From an uncultured virus (IMG/VR IMGVR_UViG_3300044568_002560) (lineage: Duplodnaviria; Heunggongvirae; Uroviricota; Caudoviricetes; Ackermannviridae): 56,667 bases of DNA. Under the pieces are notes generated by a model. The model was not told the origin of the DNA. It saw only the letters and a program-made list of their open reading frames with translations, and searched no databases. Position numbers and translations under genes: made by a program. This document shows, piece by piece, positions 2,615-54,343 of this stretch. Position 1 is the stretch's first letter, and each line of letters opens with the position of its first letter. Where the stretch lies: IMG/VR virus record IMGVR_UViG_3300044568_002560; one strand, written 5' to 3'.

Positions 2615-3469
2615 TTAGGAGTTTTCGTCGTTCAATTCCTCAAAAATTGTGATCCACTTGGGGTCTTCACCACGACGCAGATACGCAGCCTTGGAAAAAC
2701 TCCACTCTTCACGCTCTTGAATCTTGTAACCGCTCTTGGTCTTCTTGGCGTAACGACGCGCAGCGTCTTGGTCTTCAAAGTATTCGTATTGCCTTGCATC
2801 GTTCATTGCACCAAACAATCCGCTAGAGGTCTTCCACACATCACCGGGGCGGTGCTTGTGTGCAGTAGTGGCACTTTCTCCACTCTTTTCCTGCTCGCCT
2901 GCGTGTTGTGGTTCGTCCTTGACATTAAACACAAACTTCTTGTTTGCGTGATCGCCCTTACGCAACTGCGAGAAGAATTGTGAAACCTTGTGCTTGGCTA
3001 GTTCAAGATTCTGTTGCCCTTCGCCCTTCTTGAAGCGCATAAGAACCTTGCCAACACCAGCACTTTCGTTTGTGCCGATATAGAAAAAGTCCTCATTGTT
3101 CTTGTACATCACGCTGTGTTGCTCGTAATGGCGACCCAACTGCACAATTTCAGACTTCTTGATTTGAGGAATCAGTAGACTCAACTCTTCCACAACGCCA
3201 CCTTCTTCTTGGTAGCCGCCCTTCATCTCAATGTAGCCGTATCCCATCTTGCGAACACGAGCCTTGAGATCAGCGTGACGCTTCATGTTTTCTTCGTTGC
3301 TTAATCCGCCACGGAAAGAACTCACAATACCGAAATCCTTGCTATCGTCTTCCACATATTGGAAAACGCGAGACAGTTTGGCTTCAACTAGTGGAGTCTC
3401 GCTTGTGTCTTTGCGATTAATCCACTCGTTTAGTTCGTTTTGGTCAAGAAATTGTGAAAACTTCTTCAT
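2615..3469 (-). CDS. Putative internal virion protein with DUF3293-like domain
   Basis: N-terminus MKKFSQFLDQNELNE; FGIVSSFR...ENMKRH...GRHYEQHSVMY; late motif at 3500-3506. Confidence 0.7.
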   Translation of the reverse strand: MKKFSQFLDQNELNEWINRKDTSETPLVEAKLSRVFQYVEDDSKDFGIVSSFRGGLSNEENMKRHADLKARVRKMGYGYIEMKGGYQEEGGVVEELSLLIPQIKKSEIVQLGRHYEQHSVMYKNNEDFFYIGTNESAGVGKVLMRFKKGEGQQNLELAKHKVSQFFSQLRKGDHANKKFVFNVKDEPQHAGEQEKSGESATTAHKHRPGDVWKTSSGLFGAMNDARQYEYFEDQDAARRYAKKTKSGYKIQEREEWSFSKAAYLRRGEDPKWITIFEELNDENS

Positions 3470-3887
3470 TTGAATGCTTCTCCTGATGGGGTAATACTAT
3501 ATTTAGCGGCAGTAGAGACTCGCCGTGCAGCATTACACCCTCATCTGTGGTGTACCAAATCTCTGAAAATGCACCAACACACCACGGCATACACCGTTCA
3601 CACGGGCGTGCCATCCGCATTTGCCCCAAATTGTTGAAACGCACATTAAAAAGCACTAATCCCCGTTCAGGAGCGTCTAATTTCAAAAATGCGTCCAATT
3701 CAGAGTGCATTTCTTCAAACATATACCCCTTTTCCTTGGCTCGGGGGTGAGTTTTGAAGCGGTTGCACCCGATAGACACGATTCGCCCCTTGCGAAGAAT
3801 GATAGAAATGTGCTTTTTCTGTCGTTTGATGTCCAAACACAGAGGATGCGCCATTTCTAGCAGTCTTTGGATGCGTTTCGCGTTCAT
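3444..3887 (-). CDS. Cytidine/dCMP deaminase-family protein
   Basis: HSE and RPCERC zinc motifs, IVSIGCN; start reassigned to ATG 3887. Confidence 0.85.
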   Translation of the reverse strand: MNAKRIQRLLEMAHPLCLDIKRQKKHISIILRKGRIVSIGCNRFKTHPRAKEKGYMFEEMHSELDAFLKLDAPERGLVLFNVRFNNLGQMRMARPCERCMPWCVGAFSEIWYTTDEGVMLHGESLLPLNIVLPHQEKHSNEEVFTIS

Positions 3888-3939
3888 AAAGAAAAGACGG
3901 CAAGAGGCGTTAGCCCCATGCCGCCCAAAAAGTATCAAA

Positions 3940-4314
3940 TCACAGAGTCTTGCAGCAAGTATCGGTCTTGGACTCGCTATGGTACTCCATCTCACGATAG
4001 ATGGAATCCGTAGTCATGTCAATCCGACGAGCAATCTTGCCGTTCTCGTCATCAATGTAACGATACGCAGCCTCAATATCACGACCGCGCTCATTCACTT
4101 CGTCCTGAATTGCATCAAAAGCGTGATCCATGCTCTGCTTCTGACCAGCAAGCACATAGAACACCACCGTAGTGCACAGGAAACTGTAGAACGCCATGAA
4201 AGTCTCCGCAGCGTTCAGGCTTTCCCCACCCTTCGCCCCGAACCACCAAAAACCACCGAAACCAATCACGCTCACTAGAGCGTATGTGCTGAAAATAGAA
4301 GTCTTGTTACGCAT
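3940..4314 (-). CDS. Two-TM membrane protein with coiled-coil tail
   Basis: SD AAGGAG before ATG 4314; two hydrophobic segments. Confidence 0.65.
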   Translation of the reverse strand: MRNKTSIFSTYALVSVIGFGGFWWFGAKGGESLNAAETFMAFYSFLCTTVVFYVLAGQKQSMDHAFDAIQDEVNERGRDIEAAYRYIDDENGKIARRIDMTTDSIYREMEYHSESKTDTCCKTL

Positions 4315-4417
4315 TTTGAATCTCCTTGAAAAAGTTTTGAACACAAAACACCCAAAGGGTGGGTGCGCGGAAGAATTTAGCATCCACACACCCACCCCTC
4401 ACCACAGGTGTTTCTGA

Positions 4418-4669
4418 TTAGGCGGTGAAGACCTTCACGGTCGCATCGCGCATACCCGAACCCAGACGCTTCGTCCAACGATTCAGCAGAATCGCAACGC
4501 CCTGCTCGCTGCACTTGAAGGTGTACGCACGACCCTCATCGGTGGGGCGGCTACGCACGAGGCTGATGTTGCTGCCGCTGATGCGATCAGCGAAAGCATC
4601 AAACTTGCCGTCGTTGCTGTTGTTGTACAGATTGACATTCACGGAAACGGTGTAGTTACGAGTCTTCAT
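4418..4669 (-). CDS. Hypothetical protein
   Basis: SD GGAG; promoter TTGACA-16-TATACT at 4754-4781. Confidence 0.65.
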   Translation of the reverse strand: MKTRNYTVSVNVNLYNNSNDGKFDAFADRISGSNISLVRSRPTDEGRAYTFKCSEQGVAILLNRWTKRLGSGMRDATVKVFTA

Positions 4670-4823
4670 AGTGAAATCTCCAAAATCGGGCTTGTGATTG
4701 AAAGAGCCGTTAGGTGCTGCCCGTTAGCACCGTTGGCTGACTTGTACTCCCATAGTATAGCATCATTCGCCACGATGTCAATACCCTTGGGAGAGTTTTC
4801 TATATTTGTTTTGATTACTTGAA

Positions 4824-5816
4824 TCAAATAGTCTCGGCGTTGCCCGACCACTTGATGTCGTGCAGGTATTCAAAATTTGCAGTAATTAGTTCACTAGTAA
4901 TAAATGCCTGCATTTCCGAAAAACTCTTAAATTCACGCAGACAACCGCTGCTGTAAACTTTAAACAATCCCAAAGTTTTAAGCACATCGCATTTATTGAT
5001 TACCAATTCCGTGCAACCTGATACTTGAACGGATTGCTTCAGGAAATCAAGATTCAACCAATTTACCAATCGCTTACGCCCTGTGGTTGAACCGTATTCA
5101 CCACCCAATTCAATAATTCTGTTCAGCGCAGGATCGTCCCACAGGGATTCAGAGAACAGCGGATCAACACCACTCTTGGTGTCGTATGCTTTTGCAACTC
5201 CGATCAGACGCTTAATTTTCTGTGTGGGAAATCCAAGAGAGCAAGCACCGTAAGGCATGGTTGTGCTGCTTGTCACATACGGGTAATCGCCGTAGTCAAT
5301 ATCCAACCACACGCTCTGTGCGCCTTCGCACAGCACCTTGCCGTCCAATTCTCCGTCCCACAGCCATTGGGATTCAAACACATCAACTGCTCGCTTGCCG
5401 CAGCGAATCATCTTGTCTGAATAGCACGGTGCAATGCCCTGCCCTGTGGTTCCAAGATGCCCCAAGTGCCGCTTGTCGTAATCAATGTGTGCTTCGGTAA
5501 TGATATGTGCAGCAGGAGAAATCTTTACAAGTGAAGTATCAAATCCTTCGCTGCGAAGATACCGAATCTCTTTGAAAAACTTGTCCGTGTTTATTACACA
5601 ACCTGCACCAATCACACACCGCTTGCCTGCAAAAATGCCTGAAGGAATAATGTGGGTCTTGTGCTTCTTGCCGTTTACCCATACGGTGTGTCCTGCGTTT
5701 GGTCCGCCGTTCCATCGGCACACCCAATCGTATTTGGGGGCAAGAGCAGCGGCAATCTTGCCCTTGCCTTCATCACCCCACGCAAGACCGTAGACCACAT
5801 CAACAGTTTCAATCAT
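4824..5816 (-). CDS. purA: Adenylosuccinate synthetase (short type)
   Basis: WGDEGKGK, GGPNAGHT, GTTGQGIAP, EGAQS, YPYVTSS, TTGRKR, NKCD motifs. Confidence 0.95.
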   Translation of the reverse strand: MIETVDVVYGLAWGDEGKGKIAAALAPKYDWVCRWNGGPNAGHTVWVNGKKHKTHIIPSGIFAGKRCVIGAGCVINTDKFFKEIRYLRSEGFDTSLVKISPAAHIITEAHIDYDKRHLGHLGTTGQGIAPCYSDKMIRCGKRAVDVFESQWLWDGELDGKVLCEGAQSVWLDIDYGDYPYVTSSTTMPYGACSLGFPTQKIKRLIGVAKAYDTKSGVDPLFSESLWDDPALNRIIELGGEYGSTTGRKRLVNWLNLDFLKQSVQVSGCTELVINKCDVLKTLGLFKVYSSGCLREFKSFSEMQAFITSELITANFEYLHDIKWSGNAETI

Positions 5817-6187
5817 TACAGTCCCAACTCTTCGTCAAGTTGTGCGAGTCTATCCATTGCTTCCTCACGCTCTTTGGTTTCAAAACAATCCCATCCGCGT
5901 ATCTTTGCGGTGTCCTGAAATTTCTTGCCAGTGTCTCCGCTTTGCCATGCACACACTTCTCGTCGTGCCTCGTCACGCTCACGCTTTGCTTCACGCAGAG
6001 CGAACGCTGCTTCGATGGACTTGTGGGTTTGCTCACGCAGTAGGGCTTCGGTGCGTTTAATAGCATCTGCCACGGCGTTCAGACGCACACCTTCGGGCAG
6101 GTAATACCCGTCGATCATGTAATCATTCTGTGCGATATAGATTAGGAAAGTGTCATCGCTCAATTCGTTGTAAGGGTTTTCAGGCAT
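5816..6187 (-). CDS. Coiled-coil phage protein (ERDEARRE family)
   Basis: ERDEARREVC...RGWDCF motif; probable start MPENP. Confidence 0.65.
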   Translation of the reverse strand: MPENPYNELSDDTFLIYIAQNDYMIDGYYLPEGVRLNAVADAIKRTEALLREQTHKSIEAAFALREAKRERDEARREVCAWQSGDTGKKFQDTAKIRGWDCFETKEREEAMDRLAQLDEELGL

Positions 6188-6620
6188 TGTCAATATCCTT
6201 GAAGCAGTCCCAACCACGGGAATCTGCAATTTCATACACTTCCTTCATGTCATGTGGATATGAAGTGGAACGGAACTGACAGATTTCCCTACGAGCCTCG
6301 TCACGCTCGGCGGTAATCACCCCACATTCAATGCGGAGCATGGAGCATTCCGTTTCAGCCTTTCGTAGATCGCGGTGCATCTCGTCGCGTTCCTTGCGGA
6401 GCCGATTGATCTGCTGTTCCATCTGCTGGTTCAGCACTCCGACAGGTTCGCAGGACATACAAGAACCTTCAAGACCTTTGAAGATTCTTGCGTATTTGGT
6501 TTGCGCTTCATCACGCTCCTCGCGCAACCGTTCAATTTCGTCTGCGGCTTCCCGACAATGCAGTTCCACAGAACGGTCATTGTGTAAGATGCTGCGTAAC
6601 CAATCCACGATATCAGTCAT
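6180..6620 (-). CDS. Coiled-coil phage protein (ERDEARRE family)
   Basis: MTDIVDWLR...EAADEIERLR; ERDEARREIC...RGWDCF; SD GGAG. Confidence 0.75.
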   Translation of the reverse strand: MTDIVDWLRSILHNDRSVELHCREAADEIERLREERDEAQTKYARIFKGLEGSCMSCEPVGVLNQQMEQQINRLRKERDEMHRDLRKAETECSMLRIECGVITAERDEARREICQFRSTSYPHDMKEVYEIADSRGWDCFKDIDNA

Positions 6621-6636
6621 AGTAATCTCCGTTTAG

Positions 6637-6709
6637 TGCCCCCAGCAGGACTTGAACCTGCAACCTACGAATTAAAAGTTCGCTACTCTACCAATTGAGT
6701 TATGGAGGC
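6637..6709 (-). tRNA. tRNA-Lys(TTT)
   Basis: Cloverleaf GCCTCCA/TGGGGGC, anticodon loop CTTTTAA. Confidence 0.93.
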
Positions 6710-6718
6710 TGAATGTCT

Positions 6719-6931
6719 TTAGAACAGGCTAGGCTGATTTGATTCAGCGTCCCTGTGTGTGCGAATCCGCAAATCGTCCATTGCATCAGTCAACTTGAAA
6801 ACCAAGTTTTCTAGTTCTGCAAGGGTGTAACTGTCCACCATCTCAATGGTGTCTACACCAAAAATTGCCATGCACGGCTTGTTGCCCTTGTGAGGATTCC
6901 GAACAATCTGTGTCTTGAAATGATTATCCAT
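6719..6931 (-). CDS. Hypothetical protein
   Basis: SD AAGGAG, coupled operon. Confidence 0.6.
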   Translation of the reverse strand: MDNHFKTQIVRNPHKGNKPCMAIFGVDTIEMVDSYTLAELENLVFKLTDAMDDLRIRTHRDAESNQPSLF

Positions 6932-7187
6932 TGGTGTTCTCCTTGTTTAGCCACTTGTGGCGAGCAATCAGTCCAAATTCCTTTTTAATGGTCTTGCCTT
7001 CACGAAACGCTTCCATCATGTCCATGAGGAACATTGTAGTGTGTTCGTCTCCCGAAATCAAGACCTCATCGTGAAGAATCTCAAACAAATCCAAAGTTGC
7101 TTGGGCGGTAACAGGATATCGCGTTTCGTTGTGGGTATGAAACCACAGAGGCTTCTTTTGTGTTTTCTTGCTTATAGGCTTCTTCAT
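6924..7187 (-). CDS. Hypothetical protein
   Basis: Start MKKPISKK overlapping the upstream stop. Confidence 0.6.
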   Translation of the reverse strand: MKKPISKKTQKKPLWFHTHNETRYPVTAQATLDLFEILHDEVLISGDEHTTMFLMDMMEAFREGKTIKKEFGLIARHKWLNKENTNG

Positions 7188-7438
7188 CGCTTGAACAGAT
7201 ACTTTAGTCTGCTCCAAAGGTTTTCGTATAGAGGAAATCCCAAAACTCCACGCTTCAAACTGTCCTGCCATCCACACCCGTCAGTTGCTCGGCTATATTT
7301 CAAAATGCTTGCGGGCGGATACCGATCACTTATTTCTCGCCACGCATGGCACTCATCAGACAGGATACGAACCTGCCGCAGCAGTTCTTCCTGCCGTTCC
7401 AAAAACCGCTCTTGGCATTCGCGGTCACACAGGCACAT
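7184..7438 (-). CDS. Hypothetical protein
   Basis: Start MCLCDREC coupled to guaC stop (TAATG). Confidence 0.55.
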   Translation of the reverse strand: MCLCDRECQERFLERQEELLRQVRILSDECHAWREISDRYPPASILKYSRATDGCGWQDSLKRGVLGFPLYENLWSRLKYLFKR

Positions 7439-8499
7439 TAGTCGCTGCCCCACACGGTGTTGAGTTGACGGTTTACGCGGATAAAAGTTGTGCACTTGCT
7501 CAAATCCTTGAGACGAGACGCACCCACATAGGTACACGCAGACCGCACACCACCAAGAATCTGCTGCATGACTCCACCAACCGAACCCACACAGGGAACC
7601 ACAACCCTCTTGCCCTCTGCTGCACGATAGGTAGCCACGCCTCCTGAATGCTTTTCCATTGCAGTAGCGGAACTCATGCCGTAGAACTCCTTGCCGTCTT
7701 CTGTTGCTTCTCCTGCCGCTTCGTCCGTGCCTGCAAACATACCGCCAATCATTACAAAGTCTGCGCCTGCACCGAATGCCTTGGCTACATCACCGGGGCA
7801 GGTGCATCCACCGTCCGACAGCACATAACCGCCTAGTCCGTGTGCAGCATCAGCACATTCCATGATGCACGACAGTTGCGGATAGCCAACGCCTGCAACC
7901 TTTCGGGTGGTGCAGACTGATCCTGGGCCAATTCCAATCTTGACAATGTTTGCACCTGCAAGAATCAGGGCTTCAGTCATTTCTCGTGTCACCACATTGC
8001 CTGCAATCAGAATATGATCGGGAAACAGCCCACGAATGGTACGCACATAATTCACAAACTTTTCGGTGTATCCGTTAGCCACATCAATACAGATAAACTT
8101 GATAGACTTGTGGCGATTCAGAATCCGTTCAGCCTTTTGGATTTCTTGCATACTGGAATTGGCATCACCCATTCCGATTGTGTACACCACATTGGGTGGG
8201 CAAGAGTAATCGGTCTGCCAACCGTACATGAAATTGTCCCATTGGGCTTCTGTGTAGTACTTGTGAATACCACACAGAGCATTAAACTCCGACAGCGCAC
8301 CAGCCATTTGGAATGTGCCAACAGTATCCATGTTGGCAGCAACAACAGGAACACCTGCCCATTGGGACTGCACATTGTCTGGAAGTCTGAATGTAAAACT
8401 TCGGGTTGTGTCAACCTTGCTGCGACTGTCCAAATTACTGCGCTTTGGGCGAATCAGCACATCAGCGAAATCCAACTTTACATCGTCTTCAATCTTCAT
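7438..8499 (-). CDS. guaC: GMP reductase
   Basis: [64 protein letters not shown]. Confidence 0.95.
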
Positions 8500-14693: not shown

Positions 14694-15482
14694 TCAGTTG
14701 ATTGTATCGCACGGCTCGTATCCACTAGCGATAAGATTGTCCCAAAGCGCACGAGCGTCTTGGACATTCAAAAAATTGTGGATGATACCCGTGATATCAT
14801 ACTGCTTCTCGCCGTTCTCGTAACGGGTAATCATCACCGTATTATCCCCGTTCTCGTTGTAGACGAATCGCACGACCATGCTGCCATTACGCAGCATGTA
14901 GGTTGCGCCACCCCGCTCCTCTTCGTCCGCAGGAACCGCAGCAGGAACCGCAACAACAGGAGCGGCAGTAGCGGTGCTGCCGTCGTCTTCGGTGAAGAAG
15001 TGGATGTCGCCCGCGATGCCCTTGGCAGACATACGGTCAATGGCTTGCATCTTTGCGTACTTGTCAAACAAGGCTTCGTTGAACTTGCTTGAGGACGAGA
15101 ACCACCAGCACTTGCCCACGCTGTCCCACATTGCGCCGTCAGCCTTCGCAATGTCCTTCTGCTCGTAGGGCAGACGCAGCACCACATTGTACGGGTGCGT
15201 GTGGTTCAGATCGCTCCACTTGATCGCGGAGTTGAACACGGGCGACTTGCGCTCGCCACGGAACATGTTGTGCTTGTTGAACCAGTTCACGCTGTCCTGC
15301 GTGATACGACGCTGCGGAAGCCACCAAGACCACTTCTTGCCGTTGGGCAGGTAACGCGCACCGCGACCCTTGGCTTCGCTGCGAAGAGCGGTTGCGCCCT
15401 TGGTGCGGAACGGAATGTCCAGCCACAGACCGTAGGGAAGCGGCTTGGACGCATCAAAAGTGAAAGTGTAAGAGTTCTGCAT
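14694..15482 (-). CDS. DUF5710-like repeat protein, leaderless
   Basis: Two LxxPF/Y...AKxxGAxW/Y...KxWW units; start MQNS after TTGTTT-16-TATACT. Confidence 0.75.
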   Translation of the reverse strand: MQNSYTFTFDASKPLPYGLWLDIPFRTKGATALRSEAKGRGARYLPNGKKWSWWLPQRRITQDSVNWFNKHNMFRGERKSPVFNSAIKWSDLNHTHPYNVVLRLPYEQKDIAKADGAMWDSVGKCWWFSSSSKFNEALFDKYAKMQAIDRMSAKGIAGDIHFFTEDDGSTATAAPVVAVPAAVPADEEERGGATYMLRNGSMVVRFVYNENGDNTVMITRYENGEKQYDITGIIHNFLNVQDARALWDNLIASGYEPCDTIN

Positions 15483-15583
15483 GTTTCTAGTATACCAGAA
15501 CGGGAAACAAAAACAAGCCCCGCTAGGAGCCTGTTTTCGCAAATAAATTACCGAGTTATCGGACGCTCCGTAAACGCGGTGGT

Positions 15584-15844
15584 TTAGGCGGGAGGATGCA
15601 CCTCGACTGCCTTCAAAGAGTCGGGCTTGAAAGAACGCCAACCCTTTGCCTCCAAATCGTAAACAGGAAGCGTATCGCTCTTGCGAGACTGTTCGCTGCC
15701 CTTGGGATGGTGGTCGGACGGAATCATCGTGATGTTCCGTGTGCCGACCAGCACTCGCTCCGTTCCGTCCTTCTTGGTAAACACCAAGCGAACGACTGCT
15801 CCATTGTCAAGGTACTGCTTCGCGGTTTCGTAGAGAGATGTCAT
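15584..15844 (-). CDS. SH3-like beta-barrel (DUF2693/WYL_2-type) protein, leaderless
   Basis: FTKKDGTERVLVGTRN...YDLEAKGWRSFK. Confidence 0.85.
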   Translation of the reverse strand: MTSLYETAKQYLDNGAVVRLVFTKKDGTERVLVGTRNITMIPSDHHPKGSEQSRKSDTLPVYDLEAKGWRSFKPDSLKAVEVHPPA

Positions 15845-15906: not shown

Positions 15907-16398
15907 TTACTCGTCGTGCAGTTCGCCAACCTCGTCATCACCCAATTCCCAAGTAATTTCGGGTTGAGGAATCCCTGAACCGTCACCGTCTGCAATAAGT
16001 GAAATCATATCACCGTCAAATGTGTAGAACGCCACAGGTCGGGCAGGGTAGCCAGCCCTCTTCAGGATTTGAACCATTCGCATTCGTCCCACAGGATTCA
16101 ACGAGTGGCAAATTGCTTCTCCAATATGTGGAGTGTGTTCACGAATCCAATCAGCAATAGCCGTACCGTCACGCCACCCCTGCTTTTCGCTAGAGTAGTG
16201 AGCGTCCTCAAGATCGTGATCCAAAAACACCACATCCCACTTTCCGTTTTGAAGTTGTGTAATGGCTTCGTCGTAATTCTGCGCCCACACAAATTCCACA
16301 TGGGCGGTTTCAGCCCGCTTATACAGGTCTGTGAAAATATCCCAACGCTCGCGCATGTCGTCTACAAAAAGAATTCGTCGCTTGTTTTTTGTGCTCAT
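15907..16398 (-). CDS. Cyclic-phosphate-processing receiver (cREC)-like domain protein
   Basis: ILFVDDMR, NYDEAI, FLDHDL, DGTAIADW, CHSLNPVGRMRM. Confidence 0.8.
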   Translation of the reverse strand: MSTKNKRRILFVDDMRERWDIFTDLYKRAETAHVEFVWAQNYDEAITQLQNGKWDVVFLDHDLEDAHYSSEKQGWRDGTAIADWIREHTPHIGEAICHSLNPVGRMRMVQILKRAGYPARPVAFYTFDGDMISLIADGDGSGIPQPEITWELGDDEVGELHDE

Positions 16399-16491
16399 TT
16401 TATCTCTTGTTTGAAAGTAGTAAACGGGTAAGAAACGCCCAAAACAGAAATCGTCCAAGATTTCTCCAATTGATTTCAGGAAAATTCGTGT

Positions 16492-24470: not shown

Positions 24471-24599
24471 GCCCCTAGTATAACACACCCCTGTGGGAGT
24501 GCAATGGTGTGGAATATTTTTTTCGTCCAGTGTGGAATTAAAACTTTACCTGTTACCGTAATAGTTTAAGTGCTTCCCGCACCAGCGCGTGCCGTGCCC

Positions 24600-24905
24600 A
24601 TATTTGAAAACACGGGCAGTAACCGATTAGAGAGTGGGCATGGGGTTCCGTATAGGGATAGGGGACGGGGCTACGCGCCGTTGTACGGGGCTGCGCTGTG
24701 TGGGGTGGGGCTGATGGGGGTACAGGCGGGGCAGCGCGTGTGGCGGCACGCCGTGCGTGTGCTGATGAATATTTGAAAAGGTGGAAGGTAAAGTTCGCCA
24801 AAAGCGAATTCCGTAAACGAATATTTGAAATCTTGGGAGAGACTCATAGGAGTCCCAATATTTGAAATCTACTTTAGGCATTTCTAGGAGTCCCAATTTT
24901 TGAAT
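24600..24905. repeat. Dispersed ATATTTGAAA repeats and TAGGAGTCCCAAT direct repeat in a non-coding region
   Basis: Exact copies at 24600, 24769, 24821, 24858, variant at 24896; 13-mer at 24847 and 24885. Confidence 0.75.
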
Positions 24906-25063
24906 TGTGGCTTCGGGATTCTTCGCGGTACGGCTAGCCGGCCCCCCTCCACCCCATAGGGGCCCGAAATGACTGGTCCGCAAACGCCCGACTCGCGTGA
25001 CCCGTAACAACCGTGTTTGTAGCGCGTGTTCAGGGCTTCCACACACGCGGGAAACCCCTGTAG

Positions 25064-25134
25064 AAATAAAAAAACCCTGACCGCACTACGCGATCAGGGC
25101 TGTTGCCCGCAGAACTCTACTAATGGGGGCAAAG
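25064..25134 (-). ncRNA. Candidate small RNA antisense to leaderless early mRNA starts
   Basis: Hairpin TTGCCC/GGGCAA with GTAGAGTTCTGC in the loop, followed by terminator CCCTGA/TCAGGG plus T7. Confidence 0.55.
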
Positions 25135-25146
25135 TATCTATTAGAA

Positions 25147-25219
25147 TAGGTGCGGTGGGATTCGAACCCACACTGTGGAGATTTTGAGTCCCCTATCTCT
25201 GCCGTTGGATTACGCACCC
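25147..25219 (-). tRNA. tRNA-Leu(CAA) with short variable region
   Basis: Cloverleaf GGGTGCG/CGCACCT, anticodon loop CTCAAAA, 73 nt. Confidence 0.9.
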
Positions 25220-26339: not shown

Positions 26340-27689
26340 TCAGAAGGGGCACTTGGTGGAAGCAGCAGGAGCGGCATCAACAGGAGCCGCAACAGGATCA
26401 GGAGTCTTGGCAGTCGCGTCGATCTTGGTGTAGAACTCCGTGAACGCATTCTTCGTCTCCTCATCGAAGCGCGACACGCAACGCTCAATGGCTTGCATCT
26501 TGTCGCCGAACACGCTGAACGCGAACACGATGTCACGCAGACGGCGCGTGGTGATGATCTCGTTCACGATCTGCTGCTTGAACGACTTGCGAACCAGATC
26601 AGCCCAGTTCACGAGATTGTCCATGAAATCATCGTCGCTCACACCGAGCGAACCCGCGTACTTCTTGAGAATCTTCTTCTCAACCTTCGGCTCTGCGTAG
26701 TCCTGTTCGTAGCAGAAGTGGAAGCGGTCAAGGAACGCCTCGTTCAACTGATTCGTGCCAGCGAAGCGACCGTCTGCGCTGCCCTTGCCCTTGGTGTTTG
26801 CGGTTGCCACGATGGTGAAACCCGCAGCAGGACGCACATACTGACCAATCTTGGGGATGAACTTGCCCTTGCCCTCCAGCACCGACTGCAAGCACATGAT
26901 GGCGTGACCGCCCAGATCCACCTCGTCAAGCAGCAGCACCGCGCCACGCTCCATTGCCACAAGCACGGGACCGGGAACGAACTTGGTTTCGCCTGCAATC
27001 AGACGGAAACCGCCAAGCAGTTCGTCTTCATCCGTCTGCACGGTGAAATTCACGCGAATGCACTCGCGTCCCAACTTGGCGCACACCTGTTCCACCATCG
27101 TGGTCTTGCCGTTGCCGCTCATGCCCGTGATGAACACAGGGCAAAACGCCTTGGACGCGATAATCGTCTCGATTTCGCTGTGGTAGCCCCACGCAATGTA
27201 GTTGCTGTCGGTGTCAGGCGTGAACGAAGTGCGCTCGCCGCCCGTCAGGCTTGCCACCATGCACGCCGCATCAGCAGTGAGCGACACGCCGCTGCCCGTG
27301 GTGATGCGCGTAGCCACCGAGGAGTCCGCAACCACGGACGCAAGCGCAGCAGCAGCGCGAGACGCAGGAGCCGCAGCAGGTGCGGGAGTCTTGGTTGCGC
27401 TGTTTGCGGTCTTTGCACCCGCAGGGCGACCACGCTTCACCGCGATCACGGTGATATCCGAGTCGCTTGCCATGATTTCGGGCAGCATGTAGAAGCCACG
27501 ACCGGACTTGCGGCTTGCGGTCATGCACCACGCGGGCACTGCGGAGTAGCCAGCGCGCTTGGCAGCAGCAAGCAGTTCGCTGTACATCACGCCGCCGCCC
27601 TTGCCGAAGTTTCCTCCGTGGAAATACGGGCGAACGGCGGTAACGAAGGCGTGCTGGGTCGAAGTAAGAGTGTAGGTAGAGTTCTTCAT
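26340..27689 (-). CDS. MoxR/CobS-type AAA+ ATPase, leaderless
   Basis: Walker A GMSGNGKT, Walker B LLLDEVD, ATANTKGKG, NEAFLDRF, ITTRRL. Confidence 0.92.
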   Translation of the reverse strand: MKNSTYTLTSTQHAFVTAVRPYFHGGNFGKGGGVMYSELLAAAKRAGYSAVPAWCMTASRKSGRGFYMLPEIMASDSDITVIAVKRGRPAGAKTANSATKTPAPAAAPASRAAAALASVVADSSVATRITTGSGVSLTADAACMVASLTGGERTSFTPDTDSNYIAWGYHSEIETIIASKAFCPVFITGMSGNGKTTMVEQVCAKLGRECIRVNFTVQTDEDELLGGFRLIAGETKFVPGPVLVAMERGAVLLLDEVDLGGHAIMCLQSVLEGKGKFIPKIGQYVRPAAGFTIVATANTKGKGSADGRFAGTNQLNEAFLDRFHFCYEQDYAEPKVEKKILKKYAGSLGVSDDDFMDNLVNWADLVRKSFKQQIVNEIITTRRLRDIVFAFSVFGDKMQAIERCVSRFDEETKNAFTEFYTKIDATAKTPDPVAAPVDAAPAASTKCPF

Positions 27690-27822
27690 ATCAATAATTT
27701 ACCCGATTTTTGGGTTCCTGTCAAGGGTTTTTTGCGAAAAACGATTCAAAAAGTCCGATAATCCACTTCGTAAACCCCTGTGGGGAGGGAATTTACGCTG
27801 TTTTTGCAGAATGTGCTGCGGC

Positions 27823-30105
27823 TCACGCCAGTGCAAGGTACTCGCCGATGATGGTGGACAGCGAACGCATGGAATTTGCCATGGCCTGCTTGTTCACCAC
27901 AGCCGTCACCAGCGTGCGGGCACTCTTTGCCGCATCAATCTTCTCGTCCATCTTGTGCATCTGCCGTTCAATCCACGCATTATTGCCTGCGTCACCGAAA
28001 CGCGCTGCCACAGCCACCACCGCAGTGTCAAAACCACACGCAGTACCACGGGCAAAACCGTCACGGCTCCAGTTGTTGCCCTTGGCAGACGGCACAAAGC
28101 CACCCATGTTGGGCACATTAGTGCTTTGACGCTCGGTCAGACCGATCCAGTGCACCTTGGAACCCGTGCGACGGCGCAGAATGTCAATGGCAGCACACAC
28201 CGAAGCGTTGTACGGGTTTTCCCAACGCACAGTGCCACGCTGGAAACTGCCGTACTTGCCGTCAGCACCCGTGCAGTAGTGCGTATCAATATCATACGAC
28301 ACGCCAGTCTGCGGGTCTTGCATCACATGGTGGGTGCGATACCCACTACCACTGGTGTTCGTGAAGAACCCATCGGTGGCTTCGCCGTCAGTCAGCACCA
28401 CGGTGTGTGCAATCTGAATGCGGTTCACCTTGAGGAAGTTCTCCACAACAGGCACAATGTGGTACAGTGCCGAAACGGTGGGCGTGGAACCCATGCGGTA
28501 GCAGCGATCATTGGTGATCGTGCCCCAGTGCCGCCACAACATGCTCTTCATGCGCTCGTACTGCGGAGCGGTCATGCGACTGCTAAAGAAATTCAGCAGA
28601 CTCACCTGCACGGTTGCAGCCTTGCCAATCATGGGCTTTTCCCACGCTTCGCGCTGTGCCTTGTACTGCGTGTACACATCGTCGCTGTACGGATCAACCC
28701 CCTTCTCCAACTTGAGGTACGGCGAATCGGTGAACGCAAACACTTCAAAGGGGATGCCAGCCATGCGGCAGAAATCAGTCAAGATGATCAACTGACCCAG
28801 AGTCTGCTGCATGATGCTGCACATGGAGCCGCTCCAGTCAAGCAGAATCACGATGCCGTGGTTCTTGCCAGTGGTGACGCGAGCGGTGCGACGGAAAATG
28901 TCTTCGTTCCACTTGTACTGCGTCATGCGGAGAGGATCAACGCCACCAGTCTTGGCAATCACGGTGCGCTTCCAAATATCCGCAGACTTGCGACGATCAA
29001 ACGCGGTAGCCATCGCGGTGCTGGCAGTCTTGTACTCTGCGCTGCGGAACGGCTCCACAACGGGATTGAGACGAGCCACGATGCGCTCCACATCAGCGAG
29101 CACGCTCTTGAAGTCCACAACAGCGTCCTGTGTATCGCACACGCGCAGCGTCTTGACATCGTAACCGCTGCGGCTGGTGTCGTTCAGCGTCTTCATGGCA
29201 TTCTCAAAAGCACTCTGCGTGGTGGGCATGGGCATATCGCTCTGCGGCTTCTCGCTCTGCGAATTGCCGTGCGACGGCTGGTTGCCACCAGTGTCGCCAC
29301 CCTGCGAGTCTTCAGGGCTACCGCCGTTGCTAGCGGATTCGTCGCCACCATCAGTAGTGGTGCTGCCGCTCTCGCTCTTGGCTTCGCCTTCACCGCTGCC
29401 CGACTGTGACTGGCTCTCCTGCTCTTCGCCTTCGCCCGAGCCACTCGCGCCGTCCGACTGGTCGCTGTTGCTGTCCTGCTTTTCCTTCATCCACTTGCCA
29501 GCGTCCACCGCAAGCATGGCATCAGCAGCAGCAACAGCGTCTTCCCAAGTCTGTGCAGCATCAAGCGCGTCCACGATGCCCTGCTCGTGCGCGTTGAAAG
29601 TAATGCTTGCACCAGTGTGCAGACCCAACTTGAAGTGGAGGTTCACGCGGTCGCCGCAGCACAGGGTGTTCCAGTCGCTGCCCTGCGTCTTGAAGAAGTC
29701 CTGCGCGAGCAGTTCACCGTAACCCTTGAAGAAGTCTGCACGCAGACCGGGGAACTGATTCTTAATCAGTCGCTCAATGCGAGCGTCTTCTGCAATGTTG
29801 AGGTACTGACGCGCCACACCCTCGCTCACGCCGTGCTTGGCGGCAAGCGTCTTGGAGTCCGTGCTCCAGCCGGTCTGCGGCGTGTGCAGCGCGTGCGACA
29901 CTTCGTGACCCACAAGCATATCGTAGAGCGCGTTGCTCATATCCTTCCAACGGGGCAGGATGAGGGTGCGGGTCTTCAAGTCGAACGCAGCGGTGGGCAC
30001 ATTGCTGTGCTCCACGGAAATGTTTTCAGTGGCAAGAAGACGCGCAAGCACGCTCTTGGTGGAGGTGTTCGGGGCGGTGGTAGCCGTAGCGGTAGAGTTC
30101 TGCAT
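27823..30105 (-). CDS. CobT-like protein: HExxH metallopeptidase domain plus VWA domain, leaderless
   Basis: LARLLATENI, HEVSHAL, EDARIE, acidic linker, DWSGSM MIDAS, LTDGE. Confidence 0.92.
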   Translation of the reverse strand: MQNSTATATTAPNTSTKSVLARLLATENISVEHSNVPTAAFDLKTRTLILPRWKDMSNALYDMLVGHEVSHALHTPQTGWSTDSKTLAAKHGVSEGVARQYLNIAEDARIERLIKNQFPGLRADFFKGYGELLAQDFFKTQGSDWNTLCCGDRVNLHFKLGLHTGASITFNAHEQGIVDALDAAQTWEDAVAAADAMLAVDAGKWMKEKQDSNSDQSDGASGSGEGEEQESQSQSGSGEGEAKSESGSTTTDGGDESASNGGSPEDSQGGDTGGNQPSHGNSQSEKPQSDMPMPTTQSAFENAMKTLNDTSRSGYDVKTLRVCDTQDAVVDFKSVLADVERIVARLNPVVEPFRSAEYKTASTAMATAFDRRKSADIWKRTVIAKTGGVDPLRMTQYKWNEDIFRRTARVTTGKNHGIVILLDWSGSMCSIMQQTLGQLIILTDFCRMAGIPFEVFAFTDSPYLKLEKGVDPYSDDVYTQYKAQREAWEKPMIGKAATVQVSLLNFFSSRMTAPQYERMKSMLWRHWGTITNDRCYRMGSTPTVSALYHIVPVVENFLKVNRIQIAHTVVLTDGEATDGFFTNTSGSGYRTHHVMQDPQTGVSYDIDTHYCTGADGKYGSFQRGTVRWENPYNASVCAAIDILRRRTGSKVHWIGLTERQSTNVPNMGGFVPSAKGNNWSRDGFARGTACGFDTAVVAVAARFGDAGNNAWIERQMHKMDEKIDAAKSARTLVTAVVNKQAMANSMRSLSTIIGEYLALA

Positions 30106-30268
30106 ACCTAAAATATACCATAAAAACGGGGCTTTGCAAGGGGTATTTCCATTTAAAGTATTCCAATGTCCGGTAATAGCGCGTATAACTGCTTTCAAAT
30201 AAAGGGTTTACGCTTTTCTTCCATTTTCCTTGTGGTAGAATAGCAACATACCTCTGGAGGATTCCCGC

Positions 30269-52408: not shown

Positions 52409-54343
52409 TTATGTGGTCAGGTCAACAATCTCACACTTGTCGCCAGTGCACGAGAATGTTTGGGTTCCAACAGTCTTGTCTTCCTTCTCGTAGTTCACCA
52501 TTTCACTCCAGTCCACGCCCTGTGGCATGGCAGCAAGAGCGGCTTCGTACTGCTCCTTGGTGCAGTCCTGATACGGTGCTTGCTTGTACGAGTGATCGGA
52601 ATGGGGCAGGAAAGAAATACCGCTGATCTCGTCAAAGTGCTTATACACCCACGCACCCACCTCCATCCACTCGTGCTCACGCACAGTAACAGTAATACTG
52701 GGCTTGTGTTCGCACCAGTGCCGCTGATACGCCAGCCACAACTCCAAGTGCTGAATAGCAGTCATGTGGTTGCGGGTCACAGAACCCACAGCCTTCATGG
52801 GGAACGAGAACACCATTGTGTGGTCGGGACGCATATTGCACACTTCGTGTGGGAAGCCCTTGTCAATCATAAACTGACACAGAGGGTCTTTGCGATCTGC
52901 ACGAACGGTGCGAATGTAGTACTCGTTGTGACGAGCGTGGATGCCGCTTGCAGAATCAGTCAACTGCGATACGGTTCCACTAGGCTTGACACAAGTAATA
53001 GCCGCTGCGGGGTTGATGCCAATCCGCTTTGCCCACTCCTTGTTGGTAGCCACGGCATGGTCACGAAGCGATTCAAGAATGTGCTGCAAGTTTTCGGTGT
53101 TGTCACGCATCATGGCGTTGTCAAGAATACCTGTGAGTGACACACCAAGCAGTGCTTCCTCTTCACAGTTCTTCTTCCAATCACTAGACAGGTACGGAAA
53201 ATGGGTAAGACTAGCCTGCCATGTGCCAAGAATGGCAGCAAGCCGTACCTTACGCTTCAAGGTTTCTTCTGTATCGTCCTTGCGAACAATTACTTCAGAC
53301 AGATTGCAGAACTGCTTGTCACGCAGAATAATTTCAGAACACGGATTAGTGCCGAACTCGTAGGTGGCATCACGACGCTCACCCAACTTTTCCACAGTCT
53401 TCTGTGCAGCCTCACGGTTAAAGATGCCACGCTCACCGCTCTTGCTGTTGTACAGAGACAGCCACTCTTCCATGAATGTGCCAATCTCGGGCTTCTCCTT
53501 GTACGCCACACTGTTGTTAGCCAGTGCACGCTGTGGGTTCTCGTTCCACCACGCACCGCTCTTGGCATTACGCATACGCTCGTCTGTCAGATTGGACAGA
53601 GAGATGAGTGCAGAACGACGCACACCACCCACCACAACCACTTCTGCTACCTTGCAAATAATGTCATGGCATTCCATTGAGGTGAGTTTGCGTCCTGCTG
53701 CTCGCTTGAAAGTATCAACGGTGAAACCGAACAGTTCTTCAAGTGGGCGAGGACCGCTTGCACGACCGCCAAATGTTTTTAGTCTTGCACCAGCGGGGCG
53801 AATCTTACTGGTGTCCCACGACGGAATCTGCCCACCAATCAGGAGTGAAACCAGTTCACGATACGCTTTTGCCCATCCTTCTTTGGAGTCCTTCACCACG
53901 ATAACGGTATCGCTACTGCTGAACTGCTCTGCAATAGTGGGTAGTTTCTCCACATACTGCCGCTCCACAGAGAAGCCCACGCCTGTGCCGCACATAAGCA
54001 CATACAGGATTTCATCAAACGCACGCACCTTGTTTACTGCCACATACGAGCAGTTGTAGCCTGCGGTGTTGTCACGCTTTAGTGCTTCGCCTGCGGTCAT
54101 TAGCGAACGCATGGACGGCATGATTTCTTGATTCAGGATAGCGGATTCCAATTCTTCACGAACAGACTTGGGAATCTTTATGCCCTTCTCTTCCCAATGC
54201 TCGTCAAAGAAAAGGAAATAACGAGCAACCGTTTCTTCCCATGTTTCGCGTCTGCCTTCGCTTTCAATCCACCGCGAGTACCTTGAAAGATGGATGAATT
54301 GCTGATAGAAACTGGGAAGAGTCTTGGTCATTAGTGCCTCCAT
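52409..54343 (-). CDS. nrdJ: Class II (B12-dependent) ribonucleotide reductase
   Basis: GYNCS, CGTGVGFS, GGVRRSA, TNPCSEI, TCVKPSGTVS, C-terminal CTGDKCE. Confidence 0.95.
   Translation of the reverse strand: MEALMTKTLPSFYQQFIHLSRYSRWIESEGRRETWEETVARYFLFFDEHWEEKGIKIPKSVREELESAILNQEIMPSMRSLMTAGEALKRDNTAGYNCSYVAVNKVRAFDEILYVLMCGTGVGFSVERQYVEKLPTIAEQFSSSDTVIVVKDSKEGWAKAYRELVSLLIGGQIPSWDTSKIRPAGARLKTFGGRASGPRPLEELFGFTVDTFKRAAGRKLTSMECHDIICKVAEVVVVGGVRRSALISLSNLTDERMRNAKSGAWWNENPQRALANNSVAYKEKPEIGTFMEEWLSLYNSKSGERGIFNREAAQKTVEKLGERRDATYEFGTNPCSEIILRDKQFCNLSEVIVRKDDTEETLKRKVRLAAILGTWQASLTHFPYLSSDWKKNCEEEALLGVSLTGILDNAMMRDNTENLQHILESLRDHAVATNKEWAKRIGINPAAAITCVKPSGTVSQLTDSASGIHARHNEYYIRTVRADRKDPLCQFMIDKGFPHEVCNMRPDHTMVFSFPMKAVGSVTRNHMTAIQHLELWLAYQRHWCEHKPSITVTVREHEWMEVGAWVYKHFDEISGISFLPHSDHSYKQAPYQDCTKEQYEAALAAMPQGVDWSEMVNYEKEDKTVGTQTFSCTGDKCEIVDLTT

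Follow-up and report, generated by a model that had tools for sequence, protein, structure and literature searches.

A conserved small-RNA-like unit behind a phage tRNA operon, with a loop complementary to the starts of three putatively leaderless early genes

The window, which is the whole stretch of 56,667 nucleotides analyzed here, derives from an uncultured, T4-like phage of lake or freshwater origin. Directly behind the final tRNA gene of one of its operons lies what is, judged from its sequence, a discrete and conserved small-RNA-like unit, in which a late-promoter-like box is followed by a hairpin whose loop never varies and then by a terminator (Table 1). This unit is probably a functional small-RNA element. 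The best single explanation, to which we give about an even chance of being right, is a small RNA gene whose loop pairs with and represses leaderless early mRNAs. The anatomy, conservation, and structure of the unit, its complementarity to gene starts, and the distribution of the start motif among clades are direct observations, from which we infer that an RNA would be made, would pair, and by pairing would repress.

Table 1. Positions of the small-RNA-like unit and of the three complementary gene starts in the window
Feature	Position	Strand	Basis or remark
tRNA-Leu(caa), 73 nt	25147..25219	-	ARAGORN; Rfam tRNA, 51 bits
Late-promoter-like box AATAGATAC, variant of CTAAATA[AC]	25134..25141	-	Ends 5 nt before hairpin
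Hairpin 1: 6-bp outer stem TTGCCC/GGGCAA, bulge, 2 inner pairs (CA/UG)	25103..25132	-	Folding, RNAalifold
Invariant 12-nt loop UUAGUAGAGUUC	25112..25123	-	Alignment of 11 distinct sequences
Proposed seed GTAGAGTTCTGC (RNA: GUAGAGUUCUGC)	25109..25120	-	Exact reverse complement of 30092-30103
Intrinsic terminator, 12-13-bp GC-rich stem plus U7	25064..25101	-	Stem 25101-25073 plus T-run
760-aa gene, phrog_459, weak cobT-like (cobalamin-biosynthesis) match; promoter TTGCAA-16-TATATT and start ATGCAGAACTCTACC at 30105	30091..30139	-	12-nt complement
449-aa CobS-like AAA_5 gene, phrog_249; promoter TTGACA-17-TAAATT and start ATGAAGAACTCTACC at 27689	27675..27724	-	10-nt complement
262-aa DUF5710 gene; promoter TTGTTT-16-TATACT and start ATGCAGAACTCTTAC at 15482	15468..15516	-	10-nt complement

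The unit occupies the location typical of 3'ETS-type RNAs, flanked by the final tRNA of the operon on one side and the intrinsic terminator on the other. The tRNA(CAA) directly upstream has no encoded CCA, so that an endonucleolytic 3' cut would be expected and would free the trailer. A 14-nt spacer containing AATAGATAC separates this tRNA from hairpin 1, whose arms on the minus strand (TTGCCC at 25132-25127 and GGGCAA at 25108-25103) enclose 18 nt; three further bases lead to the terminator stem. At -31.2 kcal/mol (z -4.68), the fold of the 89-nt trailer has a stability equaled by none of 200 shuffles. An earlier note on this DNA had described just such a hairpin downstream of tRNA-Leu with a terminator after it, and all of these features are present where it placed them. 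It had also put the seed at 25109-25120 into the loop, which is right insofar as the seed lies within the 18-nt span of the outer stem; however, in the covariation-supported structure 9 nt of GUAGAGUUCUGC are in the loop, and its last three bases (UGC) belong to the upper stem. The terminator is the sole strong minus-strand terminator between 30105 and 25064, and the unit doubles as the 3' end of an early operon that is headed by two of the three complementary starts (30105 and 27689).

No sigma-70-like promoter was found for the unit; a late-type box is present instead. In an Rfam scan, no family other than tRNA reached its gathering threshold, the C4 antisense RNA included, and the best scores besides the two tRNAs were those of sX11 (24.7 bits; gathering threshold, 70) and NsiR1 (18.7 bits; gathering threshold, 39). 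A remnant tRNA was rejected as the identity of the unit, as no tRNA model matched it. Our covariance model of the unit (R1) detects a single copy within the window. Three RNA runs, one of which contained 6% of the words, yielded only 20- to 40-nt tRNA-like pieces from other contigs.

Relatives were gathered by protein-anchored searches of viral and metagenome contigs; the close clade (clade A) comprises loci whose cobS-like protein is 81 to 100% identical to that of the window. The sequence TAGTAGAGTTC was present in 15 of the 20 clade-A loci checked, with L136 as a sixteenth, while the other five either end before the site of the unit or, like L050, have an insertion of an HNH endonuclease. 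Across the 11 distinct sequences, all 12 columns of the loop are invariant, compared with 6 of 16 in the spacer, 11 of 18 in the stems, and 35 of 56 in the 56 nt past the terminator (spacer and downstream flank together, 41 of 72). Pairing in both stems is kept through three double changes: two inner stem pairs are changed on both sides in L054 (C-G to G-C and A-U to C-G), as is one terminator pair in L004. Overall, 98.8% of the cells are paired, and none of 500 shuffles reached the observed covariation. The fold returned independently by RNAalifold agrees, with an 8-bp stem interrupted by a single bulge and a loop of 12 nt. As in trans-acting base-pairing sRNAs with a seed hairpin and a Rho-independent terminator, the seed is conserved above the remainder and the structure is kept by compensatory change.

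Judged by its neighbors, the unit is independent of any particular tRNA, since it follows a 73- to 75-nt tRNA(CAA) in some genomes, an 85-nt tRNA-Leu(CAA) in L051, L053, L068, and L136, and an open reading frame (ORF) in clade B. The model R1 found one weak homologue (19.8 bits) in G002, the complete 147-kb genome of clade B; it consists of CTAAATAA, a hairpin, and a terminator, and the hairpin is closed by a UUCG tetraloop. In clade C (G003) no homologue was detected with R1, and no close DNA relative of the window was found among GenBank phages. A search of viral contigs for loop variants (pattern TTGCCC-N12-22-GGCAACAGCCCTGA) returned seven loci but no variant loop, as five were the known unit with the same loop and two were unrelated coding matches.

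Several peculiarities were noticed around the unit. The 73-nt "Leu(CAA)" tRNA lacks a long variable arm, and its ortholog in L051 and L053, which has the anticodon UAA, precedes a normal tRNA-Leu(CAA) of 85 nt (L051:2930-3090). In L050, an HNH-type homing-endonuclease-like ORF (4620-5016) is inserted between a small acidic ORF and the place where the tRNA and the hairpin would be expected. A stretch of 60 to 100 nt that follows the terminator (window positions 25000-25063, minus strand; L130:1590-1680) is conserved in clades A and B, with TACAGG repeats and GGACCAGTCATTTCGGG. In the 570-nt noncoding stretch after the terminator, TTCAAATATT is repeated directly to give five copies at 24599-24904 on the minus strand, and GGGACTCCTA follows three of these copies. 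Window-wide, there are 21 matches against 4 expected. The array is conserved in L004 and L136 and could represent iterons, an origin, or a promoter array.

The three complementary genes are otherwise unrelated, and the best GenBank phage matches of the 449-aa AAA_5 protein are annotated as CobS (approximately 60% identity over 62% of the protein). In all three, a sigma-70-type -10 hexamer ends exactly 6 nt before the ATG, a geometry from which the mRNAs should start at or beside the A of the AUG. A leaderless layout is therefore plausible. The observation of the earlier note that three leaderless genes share near-identical starts despite being unrelated is borne out at 30105, 27689, and 15482, where the promoter geometry also fits. 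Further motif-bearing starts, which it suggested looking for, were not found in the window or in G001, G004, and G005, where the motif is confined to these three starts. A strict scan identified other leaderless-type starts (9001, 12719, 15844, and 17037, and also 24470), none of which has the motif, and genes led by a Shine-Dalgarno (SD) sequence are likewise without it; a similar sequence at 1212-1232 is part of a coding region. All three starts use the Ser codon TCT, which accounts for 16% of Ser codons, and this hints at a constraint on nucleotides rather than on the peptide.

Upstream of all three motif-bearing ATGs, at a distance of 63 to 82 nt, there is a copy of TTATCGGAC (27753-27761, 30168-30176, and 15556-15564), one copy being TTACCGGAC and one inverted. 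The box, which often has GCGTAAA further upstream and is also found in clades B and C, may be a regulator site shared by the three promoters. Directly upstream of the DUF5710 gene lies an 86-aa leaderless gene encoding a WYL_2 Sm-like SH3 domain (E value, 1e-16; 15584-15844, minus strand), which is adjoined by a gene for a cREC_REC (cyclic-phosphate processing receiver) protein (15907-16458, minus strand). Either protein could be an RNA-binding or RNA-repair factor.

The seed sequence, perfectly complementary to the 760-aa start, has one mismatch to 27676-27687 and two to 15469-15480; the complementary sites correspond to bases +3 to +14 of the three minus-strand genes. Contiguous complementarity amounts to 12, 10, and 10 nt at 30105, 27689, and 15482, respectively, both by hand and with duplexfold, exactly as the earlier note had reported. 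To gauge chance, 5,000 dinucleotide shuffles were searched for perfect antisense matches to the first 20 nt of any of 74 gene starts. Matches of at least 12 nt arose in 0.34% of shuffles of the 83-nt trailer and in 0.1% of shuffles of the loop alone, and the 12-nt complementarity is thus unlikely to be accidental. Matches of at least 9 nt arose in 19% and 3.6% of shuffles, respectively, and the complementarity common to every clade-A genome in which both are readable is limited to 9 nt (GUAGAGUUC with +6 to +14 in the cobS-like mRNA).

The energetics are less telling. The predicted duplexes with the 760-aa, cobS-like, and DUF5710 mRNAs have energies of -20.1, -15.2, and -16.8 kcal/mol, compared with -4.7 to -9.4 kcal/mol for four other leaderless starts. 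Net cofold gains were -11.5, -4.9, and -8.0, and those of control leaderless mRNAs were -1.1 to -6.1; the value of the cobS-like gene falls inside the control range and is not distinctive, which speaks against an antisense role. The same is true of the mean unpaired probability of the seed (0.39), which indicates partial pairing. In a duplex scan of both strands of the whole window, the target sites do not stand out by their energy; the 760-aa site ranked 13th of 37,758 windows (12th without the RNA's own gene).

The box in front of the hairpin is a variant of CTAAATA[AC], and CTAAATA resembles the consensus of the T4 late promoter, TATAAATA. The exact TATAAATA is absent from the window. In contrast to an expectation of 1.9, CTAAATA[AC] occurs 12 times there, a number reached in none of 100 shuffles; for the looser TA[AG]ATA[AC], 25 copies were found and 13.2 were expected. 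The CTAAATA[AC] copies are on the strand of the local genes and lie before SD-led genes (sites include 13762, 22742, 32214, 33179, 33822, 45106, and 50558). Nine of the 12 are located 5 to 62 nt before a predicted start on their own strand (8 within 31 nt), while one falls within the gene that precedes the next start, at a distance of 117 nt from that start, and no start is assigned to the remaining two. Counts of CTAAATA[AC] against its reversed control were 14 and 6 in G002, 20 and 4 in G003, 5 and 3 in G004, and 7 and 1 in G005.

Homologues of gp55, the late sigma factor of T4 (phrog_234; E values, 1e-58 and 2e-57), are encoded in the sister clades B (G002) and C (G003). The same two of five related records encode RegA (PF01818; E values, 3e-43 and 5e-44), and a gp32-like protein is encoded in the window at 3-491. 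Together these genes identify the phage group as T4-like, and a T4-like group with gp55 makes CTAAATA[AC] late-promoter-like; the box probably is the T4-type late promoter of the group. The ATAGATA at 25135-25141, called late-like by the earlier note, is not itself enriched in the window (3 copies found; 2.0 expected). However, it is a close variant of the enriched CTAAATA[AC], and a perfect CTAAATAA occupies the same spot in L051, L052, L053, L055, and L136 and in clade B.

Under our preferred explanation, an RNA of approximately 60 to 85 nt would end at the intrinsic terminator. It would be synthesized from its own late-type promoter (a TA[A/G]ATA box 5 nt before the hairpin), or be cut as a trailer from the CCA-less tRNA, or both. 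Late timing is plausible, but the operon headed by two of the targets has the unit as its 3' end, so that a processed trailer of the early transcript is an equally good origin. Of the late sRNA or tRNA-trailer RNA proposed earlier, the late part gains some support from gp55 in the sister clades and from the enrichment of CTAAATA[AC] before SD-led genes. The 12-nt loop would nucleate pairing with +6 to +14 of the leaderless early mRNAs, and in the lineage of the window pairing would extend over the AUG (+3 to +14). Since a leaderless mRNA must offer a free 5'-terminal AUG to the ribosome, the duplex is proposed to block initiation, and the cobT-like, cobS-like, and DUF5710 genes would be turned down as the RNA accumulates.

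RegB of T4 cuts at the Shine-Dalgarno GGAG, and a part of the early programme that uses leaderless mRNAs would be beyond the reach of RegB or of operators 5' of the AUG. On this premise, the RNA could be a late sRNA that serves as an RNA counterpart of RegA and RegB, its loop capping the 5'-terminal AUG and unrelated early genes having converged on a 12-mer "off" tag. We put this forward tentatively and consider it somewhat short of an even proposition.

Comparison among clades bears on both the antisense reading and its main competitor. In clade A, the first seven codons of the cobS-like start ATGAAGAACTCTACCTACACTCT are identical in the seven sequences with a readable start, although 60% of codons vary and third positions are approximately 70% identical. 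The invariance extends to +23, however, past the pairing region, which argues against an antisense constraint. A search of viral contigs for DUF5710 relatives returned the same contig only. The ortholog in G004 (clade A) keeps ATGCAGAACTCT at 58% amino acid identity, but the 90 nt upstream of it are equally conserved and the conservation is therefore not specific to the start. In clade B, the orthologs of the DUF5710 and 760-aa genes start with ATGGCAACTGCC and ATGAAGACTCTT, respectively; those of clade C start with ATGGCTACCGCT and ATGTCGAATACT. Given these differing starts and the closed loop of clade B, the open loop and the motif at two genes co-occur in clade A. This co-occurrence is one evolutionary event and not replicated covariation.

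The 760-aa start drifts synonymously within clade A. AAC has become AAT in L004, L052, and L053, giving a G-U pair, and in L054 TCT has also become TCC, an A-C mismatch without a compensating change in the RNA. The RNA of L054 moreover has UUCGCG instead of UUCUGC, so that pairing to +3 to +5 is lost and the AUG is uncovered. As the loop never varies, the relatives show no covariation of seed and target, which the earlier note had proposed to examine; the cobS-like site is kept in the seven readable clade-A sequences and the DUF5710 site in G004, whereas the pairing of the L054 760-aa start fails uncompensated.

Shared starts also occur elsewhere. The cobT-like and cobS-like genes begin alike in clade B (G002; ATGAAGAC) and in clade D (L062 to L066; ATGACCACTACTAC), where the shared start differs from those of other clades; a counterpart of the unit in clade D, if it exists, would have a loop complementary to ACCACUACUAC. 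No antisense copy of at least 12 nt of the clade B, C, or D starts was found in the loci examined, and the complete G002 has none at up to 2 mismatches over 14 nt, other gene starts aside. An 11-nt match in L006 sits where a coding region ends and was set aside. Consequently, shared starts need no such RNA to arise. The concerted pattern itself, with cobT-like and cobS-like starts alike within a clade and differing between clades B and D, is a curiosity of its own. An extra site that favors the antisense reading is L071:2418-2432 (GTGAACTCTACTAA), which is complementary to the whole loop at 12 of 12 positions. It is situated 128 nt past the hairpin, where the sequence departs from that of L068, a locus that is otherwise near-identical.

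In the strongest alternative, the unit is conserved, as a terminator or a small RNA, for some other task: its loop might bind a protein, it might serve the processing or stability of the tRNA operon, or it might be a leader or attenuator of the late promoter. The match to the gene starts would then be accidental, and the shared starts would be a protein operator, for example, of RegA, or the sequence that best suits leaderless initiation. In its favor, shared starts without a detected antisense copy exist in clades B and D, clade B retains the unit with a closed loop, the peptide MQNST of the 760-aa start is kept while its codons drift, and the energy and accessibility of the pairing are unimpressive. 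The three promoters also have the upstream TTATCGGAC box in common. RegA itself is encoded in the two sister-clade records, and its sites in T4 overlap the AUG of approximately 30 mRNAs (PMC3014915). No regA has been seen so far in the other three records, which are clade-A fragments each 15 to 20% complete. In addition, the start of regA is unlike the shared starts, and known RegA sites are A+U-rich and unlike the motif (PMC3014915). A 12-nt perfect match inside the one invariant loop (P of approximately 0.001 to 0.003) and the finding that, at two genes, only the clade whose loop is open has the motif are also hard to reconcile with an accidental match. We regard this alternative as rather unlikely, though as one to be taken seriously.

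Pairing could instead occur in cis, with transcripts from 30105 or 27689 pairing their 5' AUG region with their own 3' loop; the mRNA would thereby be closed into a ring, and its stability or translation would be affected until the tRNAs are excised. The operon would permit this, as two of the three complementary starts head it and the unit ends it, no strong minus-strand terminator intervenes between 30105 and the unit, and its tRNAs and ORFs are interleaved without promoters. However, 15482, the third gene, belongs to a different transcription unit, the ends would soon be separated by tRNA excision, and the late-promoter-like box suggests independent synthesis, which leaves pairing in cis improbable. 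In another reading, which is very improbable, a dimeric regulator would bind the 12-mer as DNA at +1 to +15 of the three early promoters, and the copy in the trailer would be accidental or serve another purpose. The 12-mer is an imperfect inverted repeat (near-palindromic GYAGA-AC-TCTRC), which is why the seed self-pairs in the fold, and it overlaps the three predicted transcription starts, but neither strand has a promoter at 25109-25120 that such a protein could regulate, and the position of the 12-mer within the loop of an RNA hairpin that covaries speaks for a role at the RNA level. Inversion between the 12-bp inverted copies was dropped, as so short a repeat would not suffice, the surroundings contain no recombinase, and the inverted product would make no sense.

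The small RNA gene favored here has partial parallels in known systems. Like 3'ETS(leuZ) of Escherichia coli, the unit lies between the last tRNA, also a tRNA-Leu, and the intrinsic terminator of the operon, and from its sequence it would be released by tRNA 3' processing and act by base pairing. 3'ETS(leuZ) sponges the sRNAs RyhB and RybB. In contrast, the partners of the phage unit would be mRNA 5' ends, and it is phage encoded and has a promoter-like box of its own. In the T4 record, the small stable RNAs of species 1 and 2 (rnaC and rnaD) are likewise encoded directly behind the last tRNA of the cluster; to our knowledge, no function is known for them. These RNAs are 119 and 139 nt long, however, and have no sequence or structure similarity to the unit; the best score of R1 on the T4 tRNA region was 10 bits (E value, 0.63), at the terminator behind rnaC.

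The c4 antisense RNA of phages P1 and P7 is part of the same transcript as its target, is released by a tRNA-processing enzyme, and pairs through its loops with the translation start region. The unit would resemble c4 in being a phage antisense RNA on the transcript of its own target. However, c4 lies upstream of its target and covers the Shine-Dalgarno sequence, whereas here the target would be the 5'-terminal AUG of leaderless mRNAs. We know of few phage-encoded base-pairing RNAs with known targets.

In silencing a set of early mRNAs through a common sequence at the initiation site, the proposed RNA would act as RegA and RegB do in T4 (PMC3014915). RegA, in contrast, is a protein whose sites are A+U-rich and mostly 5' of the AUG, whereas an RNA would act here on leaderless mRNAs. 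A literature search, which included passages of PMC8244752 and PMC3014915, found no description of a phage or bacterial sRNA acting on the 5'-terminal AUG of leaderless mRNAs, which is not proof of absence.

If the explanation holds, it would mean RNA-based shut-off of early genes in a T4-type phage and the convergence of unrelated genes on a common target tag. It would also provide a first functional model for the small stable RNAs behind the tRNA clusters of T4-type phages. Because the unit, its targets, and the promoter class are short and defined, reporter tests would be straightforward even though the phage is uncultured. Apart from the unit and its putative targets, the window has genes of auxiliary metabolism at 2615-8499 and 52409-54343, encoding SAM lyase-like, adenylosuccinate synthetase, IMPDH/GMP reductase, and ribonucleotide reductase-like proteins (weak Pfam matches; E values of approximately 1e-8).
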